Virus record (IMG/VR): IMGVR_UViG_2675903495_000009
DNA: 8,656 nt
Reading direction: 5' to 3' (one strand)
Source of the DNA: a virus
Lineage: Duplodnaviria; Heunggongvirae; Uroviricota; Caudoviricetes
Below, one piece after another: positions 1 to 8,656 of this stretch. The translations under genes were made by a program, and so were the position numbers. The first letter of the stretch is position 1, and each line of letters opens with the position of its first letter. Below the pieces are notes generated by a model that saw only the letters and a list, made by a program, of their open reading frames with translations, searched no databases and had not been told where the DNA came from.

Positions 1-22
1 ATATCTCCCCGGCAGCCTTCAG

Positions 23-93
23 GGAAAAATATCATCAGATGGCTGCTTAAAAAAAGAACAAATGGTAGTGTCCGCTATTGCCAGTACACCTCA
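23..93. repeat. Left arm of a perfect 71-bp inverted repeat (partner 8586..8656)
   Basis: Plus 23..93 is identical to the reverse complement of 8586..8656 by direct comparison. The match runs to the right window edge, so the repeat may be longer. Overlaps the 3' end of the CDS 47..235. Confidence 0.8.
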
Positions 94-235
94 GGGTATA
101 AGGGGTTATGGCCACCGGACTACCAAACGGCTGCCAGCCCTCTTTCAGTTTATGTGTCAGCTTTTCCGCAAGATCTGACGGCGGCGCCGCCCTGACAACA
201 TCATAGTGTTTAAATGCCATGGTTCTTTCCACCAT
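47..235 (-). CDS. Small prophage late-region protein, DUF1737-like (recalled family)
   Basis: ORF track 62 aa. The second ATG at 220 (MAFKHYDVVRAAPPSDLAEKLTHKLKEGWQPFGSPV...) has a GGTGGA Shine-Dalgarno 7 nt upstream and is the likelier start. Resembles small proteins found just upstream of holin genes in lambdoid prophages. The last ~15 codons lie inside the inverted repeat, so the C-terminus may be a recombination product. Confidence 0.5.
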   Translation of the reverse strand: MVERTMAFKHYDVVRAAPPSDLAEKLTHKLKEGWQPFGSPVAITPYTLRCTGNSGHYHLFFF

Positions 236-413
236 CTGAAAAATAATTCTTTAAAATACCTGACATGTAATACAGAAAAAACACAAAACCATACCTTAAA
301 TAAAAACCTGATTATCAAGCAGATATGCATGGATAAACTACAAGACGAGATATAAACCACCCTGCATTTAAATAAACAATAAACAACATCAGAAAAATAA
401 TTCTGCTCTATGG

Positions 414-440
414 TTTACATTCAAAAATATCATTTATACT
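414..440 (+). promoter_or_regulatory. Candidate sigma70 promoter (TTTACA-N15-TATACT) for ORF 481..816
   Basis: -35-like TTTACA at 414..419 and -10-like TATACT at 435..440. The 15-nt spacer is short, and the region is AT-rich where such matches arise by chance. Confidence 0.2.
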
Positions 441-480
441 TTTCAGAACATCACCAGCAAGGCATAAACAAGGAAACTAA

Positions 481-816
481 ATGAAGTGGATTGTGATTGA
501 TACAGTTATCCAGCCATCATGCGGAATATCTTTTTCAGTCATATGGAGTAAAATAAAATTAATAATCTGGTATCAATCGGATGCTTTCTTACCTCCTGAA
601 AGTATATTTACACTGACTCACACAGGCATCATGCTCAATAACAAAGTGCTACCTGTAACCATTTACAACGTAGTACCATTCAATAAAACATTCTGGAATT
701 CAATCAAAAATAGCCAGGAATGCCCTACAAATACAGATAACGTATTGAATGAATGCTTTAATAACCGTTGCACTCTGCAAATATGTCCTTATGGACTAAA
801 ACAACAAAGTCCATAA
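481..816 (+). CDS. Hypothetical protein (111 aa, 5 Cys) in AT-rich cargo island, opposite strand to the phage genes
   Basis: ATG preceded by AAGGAA 6 nt upstream. A 111-codon open frame in roughly 33% GC DNA is unlikely by chance. 6 of 13 Ile codons are ATA. No recognisable domain. Confidence 0.35.
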
Positions 817-840
817 GGAGTTTACTCACATCTGACAAAA

Positions 841-872
841 TCAATATAAACAGCCCCTCCGGAGAGGGGCTG
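841..872 (-). terminator. Rho-independent terminator candidate (minus-strand orientation)
   Basis: Perfect 9-bp stem cagcccctc/gaggggctg with loop cgga at 851..872. On the minus strand it is followed by UUUAUAUU (plus 841..850). No U-tract on the plus side. Confidence 0.45.
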
Positions 873-1212
873 GAGAGTGGCGCTATGTGCCATTGCATGG
901 TGCCGGGTGCCTCCCGGTGAATTCAGTACCAGCACCTGAATCCGCGATTATCCCATATACCTACTCGCTGATTGCCCCTCCGCACAGGGGGATTCACCAT
1001 GCCAGTTTCTTTTAACAAACTCCCCGCAAACCAGACAACAGTCAACCGCCTGAATTGTGAAGTATTTAAAAATTTCTCCCGCTAACTGATACCCGGCTAA
1101 CAGTCTGGCGTTTTCTTTTTCAGCAACGGGAAAGCAACAACCACCACACCCGCCACCAGCACACCGTCAGCCAGCACTTTTTACCGTAACAGGTGATAAT
1201 CCAGATATGTAT

Positions 1213-1566
1213 CTACCCCAGATGAGTAATCCGAAGTTCATCCATACCACAGGTCCTGGCTATTCTGTTGTACTCCTGAACAAGAGCAAATAATTCTGAA
1301 TTAGCAACCATGAACTCATCGCAAACCCTCTGTATAGCATCACTATTCAGAATAATAACGTCTCTTCCCGAAAGACGATCAGGAGTACAGAACAAAACTG
1401 TCAAACGGCTGAAGGCCTTTGCTCGTGCTGCATTGACTATATCAATACGCTGCCTAAGGATGAAACACCCCGACGCCTCATCAATATTCACTCTACCCAC
1501 ACCATATGAATGATAAATATTTAATGCTGAAAAAACCATTAGACCGTATAACAAACACTCAATCAA
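1213..1566 (-). CDS. Hypothetical protein (about 108 aa from ATG at 1539), rich in rare Arg/Ile codons
   Basis: ORF track 117 aa from a TTG; first ATG at 1539 (MVFSALNIYHSYGVG...). 8 of 11 Arg codons are AGA/AGG/CGA/CGG and 3 of 10 Ile codons are ATA, matching the three tRNAs immediately upstream. No recognisable family and no obvious Shine-Dalgarno. Confidence 0.4.
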   Translation of the reverse strand: MIECLLYGLMVFSALNIYHSYGVGRVNIDEASGCFILRQRIDIVNAARAKAFSRLTVLFCTPDRLSGRDVIILNSDAIQRVCDEFMVANSELFALVQEYNRIARTCGMDELRITHLG

Positions 1567-1676
1567 TACTTAACAGAACTTTTATTTTTGACAAACATAA
1601 AATATTTTCAACAATATCCTGAGCCAGGTATATTTCAGTATAAGGCTCTGCCGGAAGGAATCTGGAAGAATGAATA

Positions 1677-1753
1677 TGGCGCGCTGTACTGGATTCGAAC
1701 CAGTGACCGATTGCTTAGAAGGCAATTGCTCTGTCCGGCTGAGCTAACAACGC
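1677..1753 (-). tRNA. argO: tRNA-Arg (anticodon UCU)
   Basis: Cloverleaf read by hand: acceptor GCGTTGT/ACAGCGC, anticodon loop CUUCUAA, T-loop GGTTCGAATCC, 3' discriminator G + CCA encoded. Symbol given by positional analogy to the ileZ-argN-argO trio of Stx phages; uncertain. Confidence 0.85.
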
Positions 1754-1766
1754 ATGATGCAGATAA

Positions 1767-1843
1767 TGGACCGCCATCGGGGACTTGAACCCCGCGCAGC
1801 CAGCTTCGAAGGCTGGCGCTCTTTCCTGATGAGCTAATGGCGG
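1767..1843 (-). tRNA. argN: tRNA-Arg (anticodon UCG)
   Basis: Acceptor CCGCCAT/ATGGCGG, anticodon stem-loop CCAGC-CUUCGAA-GCUGG, T-arm CGGGG-TTCAAGT-CCCCG, CCA encoded. The 5' C is unusual, so the 5' end may be off by 1 nt. Symbol by positional analogy; uncertain. Confidence 0.8.
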
Positions 1844-1850
1844 TATGTGA

Positions 1851-1926
1851 TGGTGGCCCTTGCTGGATTTGAACCAGCGACCTGGCGATTATGAGTCGCT
1901 CGCTCTCACCACTGAGCTAAAGGGCC
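1851..1926 (-). tRNA. ileZ: tRNA with CAU anticodon, near-identical to E. coli tRNA-Ile2 (lysidine, reads AUA)
   Basis: GGCCCTTTAGCTCAGTGGTGAGAGCGAGCGACTCATAATCGCCAGGTCGCTGGTTCAAATCCAGCAAGGGCCACCA differs at only a few positions from ileX as I recall it. Ile2 versus Met cannot be settled from sequence alone. Confidence 0.85.
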
Positions 1927-1966
1927 GGGAGCCGCATAATAACGACGCGTAATTAATTCTTCAATA

Positions 1967-3034
1967 TCATCCGTTCTGGCTGACTAAATCCTGTACTTCC
2001 CGAACCGTCTGCTCAAAACGTTCAGTCTCCAGCTCAACGCCAATTGCACGACGCCCGAGCGCCAGTGCCGCTTTCACTGTCGAACCCAACCCCATGAAAA
2101 AATCTGCAATCAGGTCACCCGGACGACTGCTAGCGCTGATTATCTGCTGCAGCATTTCTGCCGGTTTTTCGCACGGATGTTTCCCGGGATAGAACTGCAC
2201 CGGTTTATGCGTCCACACATCGGTATACGGCACCTGCACCGTCACGCCAAAATACCGCCGCAGATGTTTATATTCACTCAGCAGCTCCGCATACTGCCGG
2301 TTCAGTGAGGTATACGTATCCACCAGCTGGTGGTGGAGCTTTTCCAGTTCACCACGCCGATGCTTCTCTTCTGCCACCCGGGCAAACAGCGCCTGTAATT
2401 TCAGATAATCGCTTTCATTCGGCAACTGCCACTGACCGGCACTGAACCAGTGCGACACCATGTTTTTCTTTCCTGTGGCATCTGCAATCTGTTTTGCCGT
2501 TATCCCCAGGGCAGCTCGCGCATCACGAAAGTAAGAAATCAGCGGGGCCATCACATNNNNNNNNNNNNNNNNNNNNNNNNNNNNNNNNNNNNNNNNNNNN
2601 NNNNNNNNNNNNNNNNNNNNNNNNNNNNNNNNNNNNNNNNNNNNNNNNNNNNNNNNNNNNNNNNNNNNNNNNNNNNNNNNNNNNNNNNNNNNNNNNNNNN
2701 NNNNNNNNNNNNNNNNNNNNNNNNNNNNNNNNNNNNNNNNNNNNNNNNNNNNNNNNNNNNNNNNNNNNNNNNNNNNNNNNNNNNNNNNNNNNNNNNNNNN
2801 NNNNNNNNNNNNNNNNGGTTTCAGCACCCGCCAGAACTGCGCCAGACACTGGTCCAGCCACTTCAGGTAATCATCGTCGCCCTTCCACTGGTTATCCCAG
2901 CCCTCAGGCTTCACTTTAAAGTACGGCGGGTCCGTGACTATCAGGTCAACAGAATTTTCGGGTAACGACCGGATAAATTCCAGGCAGTCGGCGTTGATTA
3001 ACTCACAACTGGATATTTTTACAGTATTAAGCAT
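1967..3034 (-). CDS. DNA methyltransferase (N6-adenine/N4-cytosine, beta class), phage-type
   Basis: 355 aa. N-terminal VTDPPYF (catalytic motif IV, DPPY) and C-terminal FFMGLGST (AdoMet-binding motif I, FxGxG) in the order typical of beta-class MTases. The middle (2557..2816) is masked. No adjacent restriction endonuclease, so apparently orphan. Confidence 0.9.
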   Translation of the reverse strand: MLNTVKISSCELINADCLEFIRSLPENSVDLIVTDPPYFKVKPEGWDNQWKGDDDYLKWLDQCLAQFWRVLKXXXXXXXXXXXXXXXXXXXXXXXXXXXXXXXXXXXXXXXXXXXXXXXXXXXXXXXXXXXXXXXXXXXXXXXXXXXXXXXXXXXXXXXXVMAPLISYFRDARAALGITAKQIADATGKKNMVSHWFSAGQWQLPNESDYLKLQALFARVAEEKHRRGELEKLHHQLVDTYTSLNRQYAELLSEYKHLRRYFGVTVQVPYTDVWTHKPVQFYPGKHPCEKPAEMLQQIISASSRPGDLIADFFMGLGSTVKAALALGRRAIGVELETERFEQTVREVQDLVSQNG

Positions 3035-3128
3035 GGATCATTAAGCCTGTCTCTGATAGGCTCATTCTGCTTTTGCGCAAAGCAGTGGGCCTGAGGTTTG
3101 CTTGTGAACCCAACGCATGAGCAGATGG

Positions 3129-3155
3129 CTGGTGGGTGCCCCTAACACCCACCAG
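3129..3155. other. Stable 10-bp perfect hairpin without U-tract between the small late ORF and the methylase gene
   Basis: ctggtgggtg-cccctaa-cacccaccag. Possible processing or attenuation element; function unknown. Confidence 0.3.
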
Positions 3156-3170
3156 CCGCCCATTTACCAC

Positions 3171-3198
3171 AAATAAAAAAGCCTTCACTGCGGAAGGC
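3171..3198 (-). terminator. Rho-independent terminator candidate overlapping the stop of CDS 3185..3382
   Basis: Minus-strand gccttc-cgcagt-gaaggc hairpin (plus 3181..3198) followed by UUUUUUAUUU (plus 3171..3180). Confidence 0.5.
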
Positions 3199-3382
3199 GT
3201 CTGTAACAACCGAACTGATAGTCTGCCAGACCCGCCATAACCAGCTGGGTCAGTATTAACTGGCAGCGTTCGCGTGAAAGGTAAGTATTCTGCGCTATCT
3301 CCCCGACTGTCGCCGGTTCGGTAACGCTTAATTCATTAAACACCACTCTGGCGGTTTCTGTCATATCCTGCTGTTTTAGCAT
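3185..3382 (-). CDS. Small hypothetical protein (65 aa), possible winged-helix/HTH DNA-binding protein; first gene after PR'/tR'
   Basis: MLKQQDMTETARVVFNELSVTEPATVGEIAQNTYLSRERCQLILTQLVMAGL... with a ggaaaaggaaaag Shine-Dalgarno region upstream. The helix-turn-helix-like segment TVGEIAQNTYLSRERCQLIL is judged by eye. Confidence 0.5.
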   Translation of the reverse strand: MLKQQDMTETARVVFNELSVTEPATVGEIAQNTYLSRERCQLILTQLVMAGLADYQFGCYRRLPQ

Positions 3383-3499
3383 GTCTTTTCCTTTTCCGGT
3401 TAACGTGACACACCAATAACTCTTGTCGAAAAAGCCAGCAAGCTGAAAGACAGGTATTCACCGCCACCAGCGCGTTTACTGTACTGACGCGATTTCAGT

Positions 3500-3526
3500 C
3501 ATAAAAAACCCGCTCGGCGGCGGGTT
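3500..3526 (-). terminator. tR'-like intrinsic terminator of the short PR' transcript
   Basis: Minus-strand acccgc-cgccga-gcgggu hairpin followed by UUUUUUAU, about 40-65 nt downstream of the PR' -10. Confidence 0.65.
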
Positions 3527-3559
3527 GTAGAAACTCTTCTAACGTCAGGCATAAAACGC

Positions 3560-3601
3560 CCATCGTTATGACGAATTTACCACAGATTCCGGAAAAATCA
3601 A
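3560..3601 (-). promoter_or_regulatory. Lambda-type late promoter PR' with qut and pause-inducing element
   Basis: On the minus strand, immediately after the Q2 stop: TTGATT (-35, plus 3596..3601), 16-nt spacer, TAAATT (-10, plus 3574..3579), then cgtcat-AACGATGGG. This matches the lambda PR' arrangement TAAATT-N6-AACGATGGG as I recall it. Confidence 0.7.
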
Positions 3602-3606
3602 CCTTG

Positions 3607-4354
3607 TTACCTAGTTACCTTTTTTAACTGCCGCTCAGCCCATGCTTCTTCAATATCAAACCGGGTCACCAGCGCATCATAAAATTTCTTAACTGTTTTT
3701 TCCCATGACGCGCGTGTTATCTGGTTTGTCACCTCGCATATAGCATTAAATGCCTCCGTTGATGGTAGTCTTTCATAGCCACGACCACCANNNNNNNNNN
3801 NNNNNNNNNNNNNNNNNNNNNNNNNNNNNNNNNNNNNNNNNNNNNNNNNNNNNNNNNNNNNNNNNNNNNNNNNNNNNNNNNNNNNNNNNNNNNNNNNNNN
3901 NNNNNNNNNNNNNNNNNNNNNNNNNNNNNNNNNNNNNNNNNNNNNNNNNNNNNNNNNNNNNNNNNNNNNNNNNNNNNNNNNNNNNNNNNNNNNNNNNNNN
4001 NNNNNNNNNNNNNNNNNNNNNNNNNNNNNNNNNNNNNNNNNNNNNNNNNNNNNNNNNNNNNNNNNNNNNNNCTACCGGTTTTATTTCTGCCGGAAGTTTT
4101 CTCAACGCCGCCACACGATCGCACCGACTGAGTGCATAATCTGCCAGTAATTCTGTTGCCCGCGCCCTGTCATTCATACTGATGCCCATTTTCCCCAGGA
4201 ACGCAGAAAACCCCATCTCAGCCCGATTCTGTGTCATGCCCTGCGCGGCCATCACATCAGTGATACTCAGCGCATCTTTTGACGTTGAGGCCGATGCATC
4301 GGTCAGGCAAGGGGATTTTGGGGAGTAGTATTTCGGTAAATCTTCCAGTTTCAT
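3607..4354 (-). CDS. Q: Late antiterminator Q, lambda-Q family (copy 2, adjacent to PR')
   Basis: N-terminus MKLEDLPKYYSPKSP...TDVMAAQGMTQNRAEMG resembles lambda Q (MRLESVAKFHSPKSP...TDVMAAMGMAQSQAGFG). C-terminal frame ...ASWEKTVKKFYDALVTRFDIEEAWAERQLKKVTR* resembles the lambda Q C-terminus. The interior 3791..4071 is masked. The span is 748 nt, not a multiple of 3, and about 38 codons longer than copy 1, so integrity is unverified. Confidence 0.7.
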
Positions 4355-4430
4355 TTTTTGACCTGCTCTTCATGCATTATGGGGTAAATCTTCACCCCCA
4401 GACGTCCACCAGATACTGGCTGACCACGAA
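4072..4430. repeat. Direct repeat, copy 2 of the rusA-3'/Q-5' module (partner 5153..5511, offset 1081 bp, about 92% identity by eye)
   Basis: Base-by-base comparison shows scattered substitutions only, so these are diverged copies rather than an assembly duplicate. Confidence 0.85.
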
Positions 4431-4574
4431 NNNNNNNNNNNNNNNNNNNNNNNNNNNNNNNNNNNNNNNNNNNNNNNNNNNNNNNNNNNNNNNNNNNNNN
4501 NNNNNNNNNNNNNNNNNNNNNNNNNNNNNNNNNNNCACCGTCGGCGGATAAGGTAAAATAAACTCATGGCGCAT
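4351..4574 (-). pseudogene. rusA-like remnant (second copy): N-terminal and C-terminal segments but too short and out of frame
   Basis: N-terminus MRHEFILPYPPTV (RusA-like LPxPP start) and C-terminus ...RGQPVSGGRLGVKIYPIMHEEQVKK* (cf copy 1 ...RAQPVSGGRLGVKIYPIMLEGQVKK*). Only 224 nt span start to stop, including the 105-nt mask, versus about 360 nt for full RusA. Its TGA overlaps the Q2 ATG (ATGA). Depends on the mask length being true. Confidence 0.4.
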
Positions 4575-4816
4575 CAGCGCAGCACCTCCTGCACCAGTTT
4601 TTCAAACTTTCCGACTCTGGTTTCCAGCTCTGCCACACAGTCCACCAGCTCATCTACTGCTTTCTGTGCGCGATGCTTCGCCTGCATCAGTTCCCGAAGC
4701 GCGGGTACCATATCTTTACGGATAGCGTCTTTTGTTATGCCCGTTTTTTCGAGTTGTTCAGCATGACGCAGCATTTCCTGCGCGTGTTTACGCAATTGTT
4801 CAGGGGTAAAAGTCAT
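4574..4816 (-). CDS. Small hypothetical protein (80 aa from ATG at 4816), predicted helical and charged
   Basis: MTFTPEQLRKHAQEMLRHAEQLEKTG...AELETRVGKFEKLVQEVLR. The N-terminus resembles that of CDS 7868..8212. Its start overlaps the 3' end of Q1 by 17 nt. Confidence 0.45.
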   Translation of the reverse strand: MTFTPEQLRKHAQEMLRHAEQLEKTGITKDAIRKDMVPALRELMQAKHRAQKAVDELVDCVAELETRVGKFEKLVQEVLR

Positions 4817-5435
4817 TGTCTGGTTGTTCAAAAGAAACGCTCCATCTTACTGCTGTCAGTTCGTTTATTACTGTATCTGCGCGGATTGCCGGGCNNNNNN
4901 NNNNNNNNNNNNNNNNNNNNNNNNNNNNNNNNNNNNNNNNNNNNNNNNNNNNNNNNNNNNNNNNNNNNNNNNNNNNNNNNNNNNNNNNNNNNNNNNNNNN
5001 NNNNNNNNNNNNNNNNNNNNNNNNNNNNNNNNNNNNNNNNNNNNNNNNNNNNNNNNNNNNNNNNNNNNNNNNNNNNNNNNNNNNNNNNNNNNNNNNNNNN
5101 NNNNNNNNNNNNNNNNNNNNNNNNNNNNNNNNNNNNNNNNNNNNNNNNNNNNCTGCCGGTTTTATTTCTGCCGGGAGTTTTCTTAACGCCGCCACGCGAT
5201 CACACCGACTGAGTGCATATTCTGTCAGCAATTCTGTTGCCCGCTCTCTGTCATTCATACTAATGCCCATTTTCCCAAGGAACGCAGAAACCCCCATCTC
5301 AGCCCGATTCTGTGTCATGCCCTGCGCGGCCATCACATCAGTGATACTCAGCGCATCTTTCGACGTTGAGGCCGATGCATCAGTCAGGCCGGGGGATTTT
5401 GGGGAGTAGTATTTCGGTAAATCTTCCAGTTTCAT
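4800..5435 (-). CDS. Q: Late antiterminator Q, lambda-Q family (copy 1) with C-terminal extension
   Basis: 211 aa, in frame across the 258-nt mask. N-terminus about 95% identical to copy 2. The C-terminus ...IRADTVINELTAVRWSVSFEQPDNDFYP* runs about 16 aa past the position where lambda Q ends (...NILNAVTR*). Its ATG overlaps the rusA stop (ATGA). No PR'-like promoter follows it. Confidence 0.75.
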   Translation of the reverse strand: MKLEDLPKYYSPKSPGLTDASASTSKDALSITDVMAAQGMTQNRAEMGVSAFLGKMGISMNDRERATELLTEYALSRCDRVAALRKLPAEIKPAXXXXXXXXXXXXXXXXXXXXXXXXXXXXXXXXXXXXXXXXXXXXXXXXXXXXXXXXXXXXXXXXXXXXXXXXXXXXXXXXXXXXXXXPAIRADTVINELTAVRWSVSFEQPDNDFYP

Positions 5436-5511
5436 TTTTTGACCTGCCCTTCAAGCATTATGGGATAAATCTTCACCCCCAGACGTCCACCAGATACTGG
5501 CTGAGCACGAA
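5153..5511. repeat. Direct repeat, copy 1 of the rusA-3'/Q-5' module (partner 4072..4430)
   Basis: See partner entry. Confidence 0.85.
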
Positions 5512-5713
5512 CGATATTGATTTCATCAAACTGCTCATCGTCCATTAGCAACCCCGCATGCGTCAGCGCATCCAGCGGCGCTTTCAGAATATTGTCCAGG
5601 TCACGGCGGCGCTTATCCGGTGGTTCTGCAATAATTTTTATTGCCAACCTTCCGGACAGGCTTAATTTCAGCCGCTGCTGGCGAACAATAAGCGCCACTG
5701 CCCGGCGATAACG
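5432..5713 (-). CDS. rusA: Holliday-junction resolvase RusA (visible C-terminal 93 aa; N-terminus inside mask 5714..5939)
   Basis: ...EPPDKRRRDLDNILKAPLDALTHAGLLMDDEQFDEINIVRAQPVSGGRLGVKIYPIMLEGQVKK* matches the RusA core (DLP12 RusA ...[31 protein letters not shown]... as recalled). Stop is translationally coupled to Q1. Confidence 0.85.
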   Translation of the reverse strand, partial: RYRRAVALIVRQQRLKLSLSGRLAIKIIAEPPDKRRRDLDNILKAPLDALTHAGLLMDDEQFDEINIVRAQPVSGGRLGVKIYPIMLEGQVKK

Positions 5714-5939
5714 NNNNNNNNNNNNNNNNNNNNNNNNNNNNNNNNNNNNNNNNNNNNNNNNNNNNNNNNNNNNNNNNNNNNNNNNNNNNNNNNNNNNNNN
5801 NNNNNNNNNNNNNNNNNNNNNNNNNNNNNNNNNNNNNNNNNNNNNNNNNNNNNNNNNNNNNNNNNNNNNNNNNNNNNNNNNNNNNNNNNNNNNNNNNNNN
5901 NNNNNNNNNNNNNNNNNNNNNNNNNNNNNNNNNNNNNNN

Positions 5940-6609
5940 ACAAATCATCAGCCTTTGTTCCCATCCCTCCCAGTCCATGACCAATGATGTGATGCGGATC
6001 ATCTGCCTGATTGCCACACGTCATGCATTTCTGCGTTTTTACCCAGCGCGTGTATACAGGCATCTCTTCCCGTTGTGATTTCTGGCGCTGGAGATACTGA
6101 GCCGGTGACTCCGGATCAACGGCAATGCTGACCACCGTCTTTTCCTGTGGTGGGTTCTGTTGCTGGTGGACGTGAGGCAGTAACGCAATATTTTTTGTGC
6201 GCTGCTTCAGTATGCTGGTGGCTGTCTGCTCTCCCGGTATGATGTCGCTTTCACTGTACACAGAGCGAATTTTTTCCGCACGCAACCCCAGCGAACGACG
6301 TAATACCGCTTCCGGTAGCGCGTCCGCCACCTGATTGCGGACCGCCCACCAGGATAATTCAGCCAGAGATAATTCACGCTCCTGCGTACCGCTTATTGCG
6401 TGACCGATGACGTCAATCATCCATGCTGACAGGTTTTGATGAGCAAGTTGCTCGAGTGATTCGGATGTCTGGTCACGCAGCTGGTTGTCGCAGTGCCAGC
6501 ACAACACCATTGCGCCGGTACCATAACGGTGAATGACGGTTTCGCTGTGATGATAATCGCCGTGTGGCCACTGGCAGGATTTAATATGGCGCAACAGCCA
6601 GTCAGACAA
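5940..6609 (-). CDS. Prophage protein, DUF968/YdfU-like (recalled family), Cys/His-rich; both ends inside masks
   Basis: Visible 223 aa with CQWPHGDYHH...CWHCDNQ near the N-terminal side and CMTCGNQADDPHHIIGHGLGG near the C-terminal side, suggesting zinc-binding or HNH-like motifs. Gene order hok - short ORF - this gene - Q parallels hokD-rem-ydfU-quuQ in the K-12 Qin prophage. The track's TTG start at 6609 is probably not the true start. Confidence 0.5.
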
Positions 6610-6906
6610 TGCANNNNNNNNNNNNNNNNNNNNNNNNNNNNNNNNNNNNNNNNNNNNNNNNNNNNNNNNNNNNNNNNNNNNNNNNNNNNNNNNNNNNNNN
6701 NNNNNNNNNNNNNNNNNNNNNNNNNNNNNNNNNNNNNNNNNNNNNNNNNNNNNNNNNNNNNNNNNNNNNNNNNNNNNNNNNNNNNNNNNNNNNNNNNNNN
6801 NNNNNNNNNNNNNNNNNNNNNNNNNNNNNNNNNNACCTCCAGATCCGTTGCTGGAATGTGCGGGACGGACGCGTTGGCCGTTCGGAGTAAGGGAGCCTGA
6901 CGGAGA

Positions 6907-7191
6907 TTATCCAGTGACGGTAGTCGAGGCTAAGGGCTTTTTTAACCTCGCATCCGCGCCTGCGGTAACACTGAATGAGCCATTCGGCCTGTTCTTCAGT
7001 GCATGGGGGATGCTGGTACCAATCAGATTTAAATGCGTGAGAGCGCCGCCCGTGCCTGCTGGCAAAGACGGCTGAATTATCAGAATTGTGTAGTCTGGAA
7101 GGCAGTGGCTGACAATAGCGCCATTCTCAACGCGCACAGTATAGAGGCCATCTTCACTAAAAATTTCACGTAATTCTTCGATTTTCATCAA
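6907..7191 (-). CDS. Hypothetical small protein; only the first ~38 codons look protein-like (possible frameshifted gene)
   Basis: ATGATG start with AAGGA Shine-Dalgarno 8 nt upstream; MMKIEELREIFSEDGLYTVRVENGAIVSHCLPDYTILII then a low-complexity tail. An alternative frame is open and protein-like from about 7120 into the mask at 6834 but has no ATG/GTG/TTG. Confidence 0.3.
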   Translation of the reverse strand: MMKIEELREIFSEDGLYTVRVENGAIVSHCLPDYTILIIQPSLPAGTGGALTHLNLIGTSIPHALKNRPNGSFSVTAGADARLKKPLASTTVTG

Positions 7192-7516
7192 CAGAATCCT
7201 TCCAGATAAATAGCACTCCCCTGTTCGGGGTCCATCCCTCTTCTCCCTGCGCGCTACTTAAGTATTNNNNNNNNNNNNNNNNNNNNNNNNNNNNNNNNNN
7301 NNNNNNNNNNNNNNNNNNNNNNNNNNNNNNNNNNNNNNNNNNNNNNNNNNNNNNNNNNNNNNNNNNNNNNNNNNNNNNNNNNNNNNNNNNNNNNNNNNNN
7401 NNNNNNNNNNNNNNNNNNNNNNNNNNNNNNNNNNNNNNNNNNNNNNNNNNNNNNNNNNNNNNNNNNNNNNNNNNNNNNNNNNNNNNNNNNNNNNNNNNNN
7501 NNNNNNNNNNNNNNNN

Positions 7517-7579
7517 CACTATGACGGTTAAACAGATGACGATCAGGGCGATTAACATCGCCTTTTGCTGCTTCATAGC
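7517..7579 (-). CDS. hokD: Hok-family type I toxin, HokD/RelF-like (visible N-terminal 20 codons; rest inside mask 7267..7516)
   Basis: MKQQKAMLIALIVICLTVIV matches the HokD/RelF N-terminus as I recall it (MKQQKAMLIALIVICLTVIVTALVTRKDLCEV...). AAGGAG Shine-Dalgarno 9 nt upstream. Expected length about 50 aa, so the stop should fall near 7430 inside the mask. Confidence 0.8.
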
Positions 7580-7867
7580 CTGCTTCTCCTTGCCTTTCGG
7601 CACGTAAGAGGCTAACCTAGATTTGCCGTTCATAGATTGAGCCTCAGATTAATGTTAAGCGTCTTGCCGGACGCGTAATGTTAACTGGGGCTTTTCTCTA
7701 TCTGCCTTTTGGTGTTCATGCCTGAGACAGATAGCCTCAAGCACCCGCTGCAATTCTACTTAACTCTCCTTTTCCCGCAAACCGTTTTTATCCCCAGCGG
7801 CAAATCGAATACACCACCAGCGCCACCGCCATCGCAATTCCTACCGTTGTTAATGCTTCAGGCCAGG

Positions 7868-8212
7868 TCATCGTAAAATATCCTCCACGCTTATCAGTCC
7901 GTTCCGCTCCAGATAACTCATCGCCTTATCCGGTAATTTGCAGTCTGGCTTCGCTTTCCTCAGTTGCCAGGTTAACTGCTTTACCAGCATGGTTAACTCA
8001 TCGACCAGACGCTGATATCCCACTGGTTTGTATTCATGCAATTTACCGGCTGGCTCTGCTGCCAGCGATACCAGTGCGATTTCCAGAACAGCAATATCCA
8101 TCTTATATGTGCGGATGATGTCATGGTCGATTGTGCCCGGTATGCACAGTCTCTGTGCTTCAATAGTCTCCTCTGCGTGAGCTATTAACTGCTCTCTGGT
8201 AAAAGTCGTCAT
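7868..8212 (-). CDS. Hypothetical nin-region protein (114 aa)
   Basis: [23 protein letters not shown]... Shares the N-terminal MTTxTxE motif and an IAL(A/V)SL(E/A)AEP motif with the upstream 55-aa ORF. Its ATG overlaps the stop of that ORF (ATGA). Confidence 0.5.
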
Positions 8213-8376
8213 GCCGTAGCCCCTTCTTGATATTTTTCAAACCAGAACACAACCGGCTCTGCTTCCAGCGATGCCAGCGCAATCCGTGCCAGTTCCATTT
8301 GTTCACCACGGGTAAGCCCGTTTTCAAGCGGGTTTTTAATGAACAATTCAATACGTTCTTTGGTAATAGTGGTCAT
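8209..8376 (-). CDS. Hypothetical small acidic protein (55 aa), below the ORF-track cutoff
   Basis: Translated by hand: [55 protein letters not shown]. Strong Shine-Dalgarno (TAAGGAG, 6-nt spacer) that overlaps the stop of CDS 8387..8617. Confidence 0.45.
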
Positions 8377-8386
8377 GTGTTACTCC

Positions 8387-8617
8387 TTAACCCGCAGTGC
8401 TTTCAACTGATGAGGGGAACAAAATCTTTTCATCAAACCCTGCATTCATATCATGAACAGCAACACACCAATCCATCGACGAACGATTATCAAGAGCCTC
8501 CATGATTTCATCCATGCGGCGTAGGTCATACAGGTAAATGCTTTTATCGCCAATGGTGTAAAAGCCAATTTTTTTCGGTGATGGATGAGGTGTACTGGCA
8601 ATAGCGGACACTACCAT
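8387..8617 (-). CDS. Hypothetical protein (76 aa); first 10 codons lie in the right arm of the inverted repeat
   Basis: MVVSAIASTPHPSPKKIGFYTIGDKSIYLYDLRRMDEIMEALDNRSSMDWCVAVHDMNAGFDEKILFPSSVESTAG. No clear Shine-Dalgarno. An in-frame TAA four codons upstream rules out extension beyond the window. Confidence 0.35.
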   Translation of the reverse strand: MVVSAIASTPHPSPKKIGFYTIGDKSIYLYDLRRMDEIMEALDNRSSMDWCVAVHDMNAGFDEKILFPSSVESTAG

Positions 8618-8656
8618 TTGTTCTTTTTTTAAGCAGCCATCTGATGATATTTTTCC
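8586..8656. repeat. Right arm of the perfect 71-bp inverted repeat (partner 23..93)
   Basis: See partner entry; the match reaches the window edge. Confidence 0.8.

Follow-up and report, generated by a model that had tools for sequence, protein, structure and literature searches.

The described hok genes closest to the one considered here are hokW, which is paired with sokW in 933W/Sp5, and hokD (relF) of the K-12 Qin prophage; enrichment of hok in prophages is documented (bioRxiv 10.1101/2025.08.07.668861). The Ea22/exo-xis proteins of lambda and the Stx phages, products of small early accessory genes in a hypervariable array, are the nearest described counterparts of the ORFs upstream of our hok gene. 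Ea22 itself is a mosaic in which a constant N-terminal part and a coiled coil precede exchangeable C-terminal domains that include DUF551 (PMC10834534). A further point of comparison is provided by IS600 insertions in Shigella prophage remnants. The window, by which we mean the whole stretch of 8,656 nucleotides that was analyzed, carries a hok-like gene preceded by small minus-strand ORFs, and an earlier note proposed that these ORFs may form a novel module associated with a type I toxin. The observation is confirmed in part, and the novel hok-associated module is not supported. Instead, we strongly favor the explanation that the ORFs upstream of hok are the IS600-cut tail of an already catalogued lambdoid accessory array, and that the hok/sok system beside them is self-contained. 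The locus is a decayed prophage fragment whose proteins are catalogued as hypothetical in hundreds of genomes.

The features that bear on this explanation are collected in table 1. The ORFs of 76, 55, and 114 aa are present on the minus strand where the earlier note placed them, and their junctions are as it described. The TAA stop codon of the 76-aa ORF overlaps an AGGAG, the ATG of the 55-aa ORF follows 10 nt further on, and an ATGA overlap joins the 55- and 114-aa ORFs. The 55-aa protein is acidic as claimed (computed pI 4.76), and its likeness to the 114-aa protein reflects a shared N-terminal module (BLASTP of the 55-aa protein against the N-terminus of the 114-aa protein, E=1e-5, 18/54 residues identical). 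The idea of a discrete three-gene operon is not supported: the first ORF is a chimera cut by IS600, and intact relatives have at least 10 co-oriented small genes. A fourth ORF had been overlooked.

Table 1. Features of the window (positions are those of the whole stretch).
Feature	Position	Strand	Basis
76-aa ORF	8387..8617	minus	ORF list; chimera of IS600 and a phrog_1714 member
55-aa acidic ORF	8209..8376	minus	ORF list; phrog_3323/60/660
114-aa ORF	7868..8212	minus	ORF list; phrog_660
27-codon hydrophobic ORF	7788..7871	minus	alignment with 933W, conservation among variants
hok mRNA leader, Rfam sok (RF01794)	7571..7746	minus	112.4 bits vs gathering score of 59
Sok-type antisense RNA	7625..7695	plus	homology with annotated sokW of phage 933W, gap-free alignment
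hok, visible 5' part, 20 codons	7517..7576	minus	sequence; remainder under mask 7267..7516
IS600 right end (IRR side)	8586..8656	minus	100% inverted copy of 23..93
Other IS600 right end, in reverse orientation to that at 8586..8656	1..93	plus	100% identity to IS600 ends

The apparent first gene is an insertion-sequence artefact. Its first 11 codons (8586..8617; MVVSAIASTPH) are IS DNA, because the terminal stretch in which they lie is an exact inverted copy of 23..93 and the first 93 nt of the window are identical to the ends of IS600 (IS3 family) in 3415 E. coli records. An orfAB transposase is also adjacent, a 385-aa protein with an rve domain that adjoins the ends in loci L008-L011. Homology between the window and all of its relatives ends at 8584, and codons 12-76 match residues 23-87 in a conserved prophage protein of 87 aa (phrog_1714), the native gene of which, in relatives L001 and L002, is an 87-aa ORF that starts MATLTKKERAWLNELQDVLDRCPSPKK. 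The chimeric ORF lacks the N-terminal helix that carries W11, R21, and C22 (W11 and C22 being invariant in the family alignment), and its ATG is preceded by no Shine-Dalgarno sequence. A full-length phrog_1714 member would have this helix together with W11 and C22-P23-S24; the window copy covers profile positions 21-87 only. Chimeric ORFs of this type can lead ab initio reading astray.

The exact 76-aa sequence is a "prophage protein" of Shigella sonnei (P0144) found on 832 contigs, and complete S. sonnei chromosomes reveal how it is placed. In these chromosomes the IS600 transposase gene is directed toward the 76-aa ATG and stops 11 nt before it, and past methylase and tRNA genes there is another IS600 in inverted orientation. 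The entire prophage fragment (94..8585) sits between these two copies, and the IS600 end at the start of the window cuts a DUF1737-like ORF at 93/94. We considered the possibility that the inverted window ends represent an assembly hairpin and rejected it, since both IS600 copies, inverted relative to each other, really exist in the complete S. sonnei chromosomes. On the far side, the DUF977, IS1, and DUF4014 genes lie on the opposite strand beside ompW, and therefore no input from pR or pL reaches the window fragment. The 23 codons that the 87-aa gene lacks at its 5' end are located 3.4 kb away in S. sonnei genomes, on the other strand and beside ompW, where they are fused to an integrase remnant. 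That this detached piece is joined to the integrase remnant and not to the other IS600 end implies a further rearrangement. A 3-bp target duplication (TCC) at the IS600 junction, which had looked possible, was discarded because the detached piece does not adjoin the left end of IS600. The locus thus resembles IS600 insertions in other Shigella prophage remnants in its terminal 93 nt (100% identity) and in the adjacent transposase of complete genomes, and differs from them in that no clean 3-bp target duplication is demonstrable.

The hok gene starts at an ATG at 7576 (not 7573) with MKQQKAMLIALIVICLTVIV, and the mok frame starts at 7633. The 20 visible Hok codons are identical to those of HokD and HokW; the 3' two-thirds of the gene lie under a mask, and in complete genomes whose flanks are identical to the window (L008) hok is an intact 51-aa PF01848 gene. 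The mask also covers the 3' region, where a fold-back (fbi) element that pairs with the 5' end of the mRNA would be expected. Upstream of hok, the sok antisense/leader region, within which the mok frame starts, matches RF01794 and is collinear with the annotated sokW of 933W (L005, 2609..2679); the mok frame and this leader are ~93-99% identical to prophage copies. The masks are not faithful in length: compared with relatives, 250 N stand for 238 nt, 260 for 251, 226 for 245, and 221 for 242. Neither distances nor reading frames can thus be read across a mask, and we set aside the 12-nt length difference under the hok mask as mask jitter, given that all masks differ from the real lengths.

As in K-12 Qin, the window hok lies ahead of rem, DUF968, RusA, and Q genes. 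In contrast, K-12 hokD has relBE 16 nt upstream of its ATG and no mok/sok leader, whereas the window retains the leader, and similarity between K-12 and the window starts only 16 nt before the hokD ATG. The window does not carry a Qin-type operon with relB-relE directly upstream of a leaderless hokD. The description of a hok-like gene without relBE was thus accurate, as the hok start, the mok frame, and the sok match are all seen and relBE is absent. That the missing relBE is unusual, as the earlier note implied, is not supported by the distribution of these genes: the relE-hokD junction is present in 1167 of 5426 complete E. coli genomes, and hok-type sequence is present in ~4700-5100. The relBE-hokD of K-12 is a derived, leaderless arrangement, in which relBE has taken the place of the mok/sok leader, and not the reference state. 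By homology, the hok/mok/sok locus in the window appears to be a type I toxin-antitoxin unit in its own right, self-regulated and belonging to the hokW/hokD lineage.

Scans of the 76-, 55-, and 114-aa proteins and of a downstream 94-aa ORF against Pfam, NCBIfam, and PADLOC returned no matches. Structure and profile searches of the three proteins had been suggested earlier, and they were run as PDB-sequence, family-profile, and Foldseek searches. Whether queried with single sequences or with family profiles, PDB sequences yielded chance or designed coiled-coil matches only, Foldseek against viral models gave unnamed proteins only, and PHROG profiles gave strong matches to families annotated as "unknown function." The 76-aa protein belongs to phrog_1714 (E=5e-37), the 55-aa protein to phrog_3323 (E=1e-19) and also to phrog_60 and phrog_660, and the 114-aa protein to phrog_660 (E=8e-43). 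Hence, the statement that the three proteins are of no recognized family stands with regard to established function, for which Pfam, NCBIfam, PADLOC, and PDB sequences were empty, and fails with regard to family membership, since PHROG already catalogues all three. Compared with families phrog_1714 (the 87-aa protein), phrog_3323, and phrog_660 ("EaA"-labelled proteins of Salmonella and E. coli phages), the window proteins match the profiles directly, with the difference that the phrog_1714 member has lost its N-terminus and carries IS600-encoded residues in its place. RefSeq already lists identical or near-identical proteins as hypothetical.

The 87-aa family comprises 219 clusters at 50% identity. 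Its AlphaFold2 model is an alpha/beta fold (pLDDT 91.6). C22-P23-S24 is invariant in the family, and the C-terminal tail, FPSxVESTAG, is conserved and modelled with lower confidence. The 55-aa protein consists of an N-module (residues 1-41, ending in ALASLEAEP) and a 14-aa tail, and the same tail also ends the HNH endonuclease gene in ArgO145. The 114-aa protein starts with another variant of the N-module (residues 1-54), which a linker connects to a helical module at the C-terminus that is widely shared; its AlphaFold2 model begins with an N-terminal helical hairpin (pLDDT ~90) that ends at ALASLEAEP. Among 98 downstream genes beside 87-aa homologs, more than 25 kinds of C-terminal part follow the N-module, in proteins of 47-335 aa. 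The recombination joints lie at the ALASLEAEP hinge, and natural fusions are seen (P0031, and P0001 with P0002), both of the 55-aa N-terminal to the 114-aa C-terminal part and by read-through. The 55-aa protein is essentially the N-module alone, and genes 2 and 3 belong to one modular family. Both the 87-aa and the N-module families are widespread and structurally confident in their predicted models, which makes them reasonable targets for phage accessory-gene screens.

These proteins share with the Ea22/exo-xis proteins their origin in small early accessory genes of a hypervariable array, and with Ea22 in particular the combination of a constant N-terminal part and swappable C-terminal domains, DUF551 among them (PMC10834534). 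The sequences themselves are different. Lambda Ea22 falls in phrog_250 and phrog_368 and the window proteins fall in the disjoint set phrog_660, phrog_60, phrog_3323, and phrog_5117; the N-terminal motif of the window family is MTTxTKE...ALASLEAEP and that of Ea22 is MSxIxYQALREAAE. No window protein matches Pfam PF13935 Ead_Ea22 (IPR025153) at E<=1, and PDB searches gave no match to the solved Ea22 C-terminal domain. NCBIfam has no model naming even lambda Ea22. Accordingly, the window proteins have the mosaic build and the early accessory location of the Ead/Ea22 group and do not match its profile.

Two intact relatives of the locus, E. coli prophage L001 and phage vB_EcoS-689R5 (L002), have the 87-, 55-, and 114-aa genes at the end of a run of at least 10 small co-oriented genes. 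This run is preceded by cro, replication genes, and DUF977 and followed by hok, DUF968, RusA, and Q, and several neighbors in the array are annotated as ead or Ea22-like. The same genes also occur elsewhere. In phage PhiR49_2 all three directly adjoin xis and int in the other early operon, and there is no hok. In ArgO145 and many Stx2a phages the 114-aa gene is in the exo-xis region after an HNH endonuclease gene. Homologs of the 87-aa gene belong to the pL-type operon in Edwardsiella and Serratia, and those in Klebsiella belong to the pR-type operon. Conversely, the genes upstream of hokW in 933W are unrelated to the cassette.

The cassette (7872..8584) is present at >=80% coverage in 315 E. 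coli genomes, 241 of which have cassette and hok together. Among the 65 IMG/VR contigs with at least 2.5 kb of sequence downstream of the 87-aa gene, hok is present in 34, at a distance from the 87-aa gene of 0.8-2.45 kb with at least seven spacings and varied intervening genes. At loci from other genera, hok was found within 2.5-5 kb in 0 of 12. The frequent adjacency of cassette and hok is compatible with shared descent of one prophage lineage and might also reflect a functional link, and the E. coli adjacency is best explained by shared descent together with the location of both elements at the distal end of one array. The cassette is a portable piece of accessory arrays and not a fixed partner of hok, its association with hok being positional and variable.

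On the explanation that we favor, the stretch from 94 to 8585 would be a degraded lambdoid (Rac/Qin-like) prophage fragment of the Shigella sonnei type, held between two inverted IS600 copies. The ORFs are the 3' remainder of an early accessory array of the kind located between replication genes and nin/Q, or between exo and xis, the first gene having lost its first 22 codons to IS600, and the last three are followed in turn by the 27-codon ORF, which would encode a membrane peptide. Tight coupling by Shine-Dalgarno and ATGA overlaps is how phage polycistrons of this kind are normally packed. In intact phages the cassette would be transcribed from pR or pL after induction as a translationally coupled polycistron. 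The window fragment is severed from the phage early promoters because of the IS600 cut and the opposite-strand genes on its far side, and expression there may occur only by read-through from the IS600 transposase gene; a promoter and terminator scan of 7517..8656 found nothing above shuffle expectation. By analogy with the Ea22/exo-xis genes, for which such action is reported, the products may be dispensable and may modulate host physiology or the choice between lysis and lysogeny, and would act through protein-protein contacts and not as a toxin-antitoxin pair. As originally posed, the locus matters little, and hok/sok is a textbook system.

The proposal that the three ORFs are a novel module, toxin-antitoxin-like or anti-defence, that works with the Hok toxin draws on their tight translational coupling, on the frequent adjacency of hok in E. 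coli prophages, and on the fact that none of the proteins has a known function assigned. We consider it very unlikely, however, given that its first ORF is an IS600 chimera, that the cassette is also found without hok in PhiR49_2 and in other genera, and that hok in 933W has unrelated upstream genes. The variable distance to hok with its differing intervening genes, the end of the hok-module homology block at the 27-aa ORF, and the lack of matches to PADLOC or toxin-antitoxin families all point the same way. It is extremely unlikely that the two paralogs form a two-gene pair in which the acidic 55-aa protein serves as antitoxin to, or inhibitor of, the 114-aa protein, an arrangement of which the earlier note had been reminded. 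An ATGA overlap and a small, acidic upstream partner are what such a pair might present, and the shared N-module could mediate hetero-oligomerisation. Yet each gene occurs independently: in ArgO145 and many Stx phages the 55-aa gene is missing and the 114-aa gene directly follows the HNH endonuclease gene, and the 55-aa position is filled by the 47-335-aa variants with other downstream genes. The natural fusions of the two proteins also argue against this pairing, as does the lack of any toxin-antitoxin family match in Pfam, NCBIfam, or PADLOC, and the two genes are not obligately co-occurring.

A different partnership, in which the 87-aa protein would be the conserved partner of the product of the N-module gene that begins 10 nt further on, the N-module being a constant docking domain for exchangeable C-terminal effectors, strikes us as unlikely. 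In its favor, the N-module gene starts exactly 10 nt after the 87-aa gene in 71 of 80 viral contigs, the arrangement persists at 56-69% identity in Edwardsiella and Klebsiella and weakly in Serratia, and one N-module fronts more than 25 C-terminal variants. Moreover, the lower model confidence of the conserved FPSxVESTAG tail is what might be expected of a binding motif. Against this, not every N-module gene follows an 87-aa gene (the 114-aa gene does not, nor does the gene located just ahead of the 87-aa gene in L002), and the downstream gene is unrelated in Erwinia and Pectobacterium. In Leclercia and Klebsiella spallanzanii it shares only the first few residues (MT..T), followed by a hydrophobic stretch, and conservation among the E. 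coli copies may merely reflect a recombination joint. We regard as quite unlikely the fuller version, a two-part system in which the 87-aa protein, possibly docking through FPSxVESTAG, acts with a constant adaptor N-module that delivers rapidly exchanged C-terminal effectors (DUF551, the helical C-module, and others). Were it true, temperate phages of enterobacteria would possess in this system a polymorphic set of tools for host takeover or anti-defence, of which the window copy would be an IS600-inactivated relic.

The overlooked fourth ORF, of 27 codons, is located between the 114-aa ORF and the hok leader. Its ATG overlaps the stop codon of the 114-aa ORF (ATGA) and is preceded 8 nt upstream by GGAGGA, and its product is hydrophobic (computed GRAVY 1.13). 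Homology with the hokW region of 933W starts exactly at this ATG, and the 933W gene upstream of it is unrelated. Most variants retain the ORF and differ in it by conservative substitutions, and in other prophages two other kinds of small membrane ORF fill its position.

The two termini of the window carry one identical IS600 end in opposite orientations, and thus the 8.5-kb prophage fragment is wholly bracketed by inverted IS600 copies. The left end cuts a DUF1737-like ORF (MAFKHYDVVRAAPPSDLAEKL...) at 93/94, and complete Shigella sonnei chromosomes hold two full copies of the element. In these chromosomes the detached 5' part of the 87-aa gene (its initial 23 codons) is found on the opposite strand at a distance of 3.4 kb, fused in-frame to the 3' remnant of a phage integrase beside ompW. 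The junction with this remnant does not coincide with an IS600 end, which implies one more rearrangement. The 87-aa protein itself is confidently modeled as a small alpha/beta fold (AlphaFold2 model mc243fc74534a, pLDDT 91.6), and its family alignment (A4) shows that a C-P-S motif is invariant and that the C-terminal tail, FPSxVESTAG, is conserved. We found no solved structural relative, and its sole close structural neighbor among viral models is an unnamed protein.

Several natural fusions are found among proteins of relatives (P0031, P0001, P0002, and P0011). A 101-aa protein joins the N-module of the 55-aa protein to the C-terminal part of the 114-aa protein at the ASLEAEP hinge, read-through proteins of 167-168 aa combine the 55-aa and 114-aa products, and a 143-aa protein unites the 114-aa protein with the 27-aa peptide. 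These fusions show that recombination and frameshifting are ongoing inside the array. Translation of the hydrophobic 27-aa ORF is coupled to that of the 114-aa gene, and the block common to the window and the hokW locus of phage 933W starts at this ORF. Comparison of the window with a prophage locus (L012) and IMG/VR loci L068, L075, and L087 shows that small ORFs encoding a single helix occupy the site directly 5' of the hok leader, with at least three unrelated kinds in different prophages (MTWPEAL..CRWG, MEGALAVV..DRLGN, and MFGHINAL..EYWR).

The runs of N in the window differ in length from the sequence that they replace in the S. sonnei reference locus L008, and therefore distances and ORF frames across masks are unreliable. 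The N-terminal region of antiterminator Q is present twice in diverged form (~6 differences/94 aa), and between the copies lie an ORF of 85 aa as well as a second RusA-like start. S. sonnei reference loci have a single Q of 273 aa, and the region is ~1 kb longer in the window. Downstream of the DNA methyltransferase gene, Rfam gives a 132-bit match to the STnc100 sRNA, accompanied by three tRNA genes (Arg-tct, Arg-tcg, and Met-cat), an arrangement shared with Stx-type lambdoid prophages.

Coordinates of features in the window and in comparison loci
Feature	Location	Strand	Remark
IS600 end, left	1..93		
DUF1737-like ORF	47..235	-	
RNA genes	842..1031	-	
RNA genes	1677..1926	-	
Mask	2557..2816		260 N vs 251 nt in L008
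Q region	3729..5435	-	
Q N-terminal copy	3773..4354	-	
Second RusA-like start	4392..4574		
Q N-terminal copy	4800..5435	-	
Mask	5714..5939		226 N vs 245 nt in L008
Mask	6614..6834		221 N vs 242 nt in L008
Mask	7267..7516		250 N vs 238 nt in L008
27-aa ORF	7788..7871	-	
IS600 end, right	8586..8656		
ORF upstream of hok leader	L012 1536..1640		
Detached 87-aa gene codons	L008 6542..6609	-	
Full IS600	L008 8833..9989		
Full IS600	L008 16441..17597
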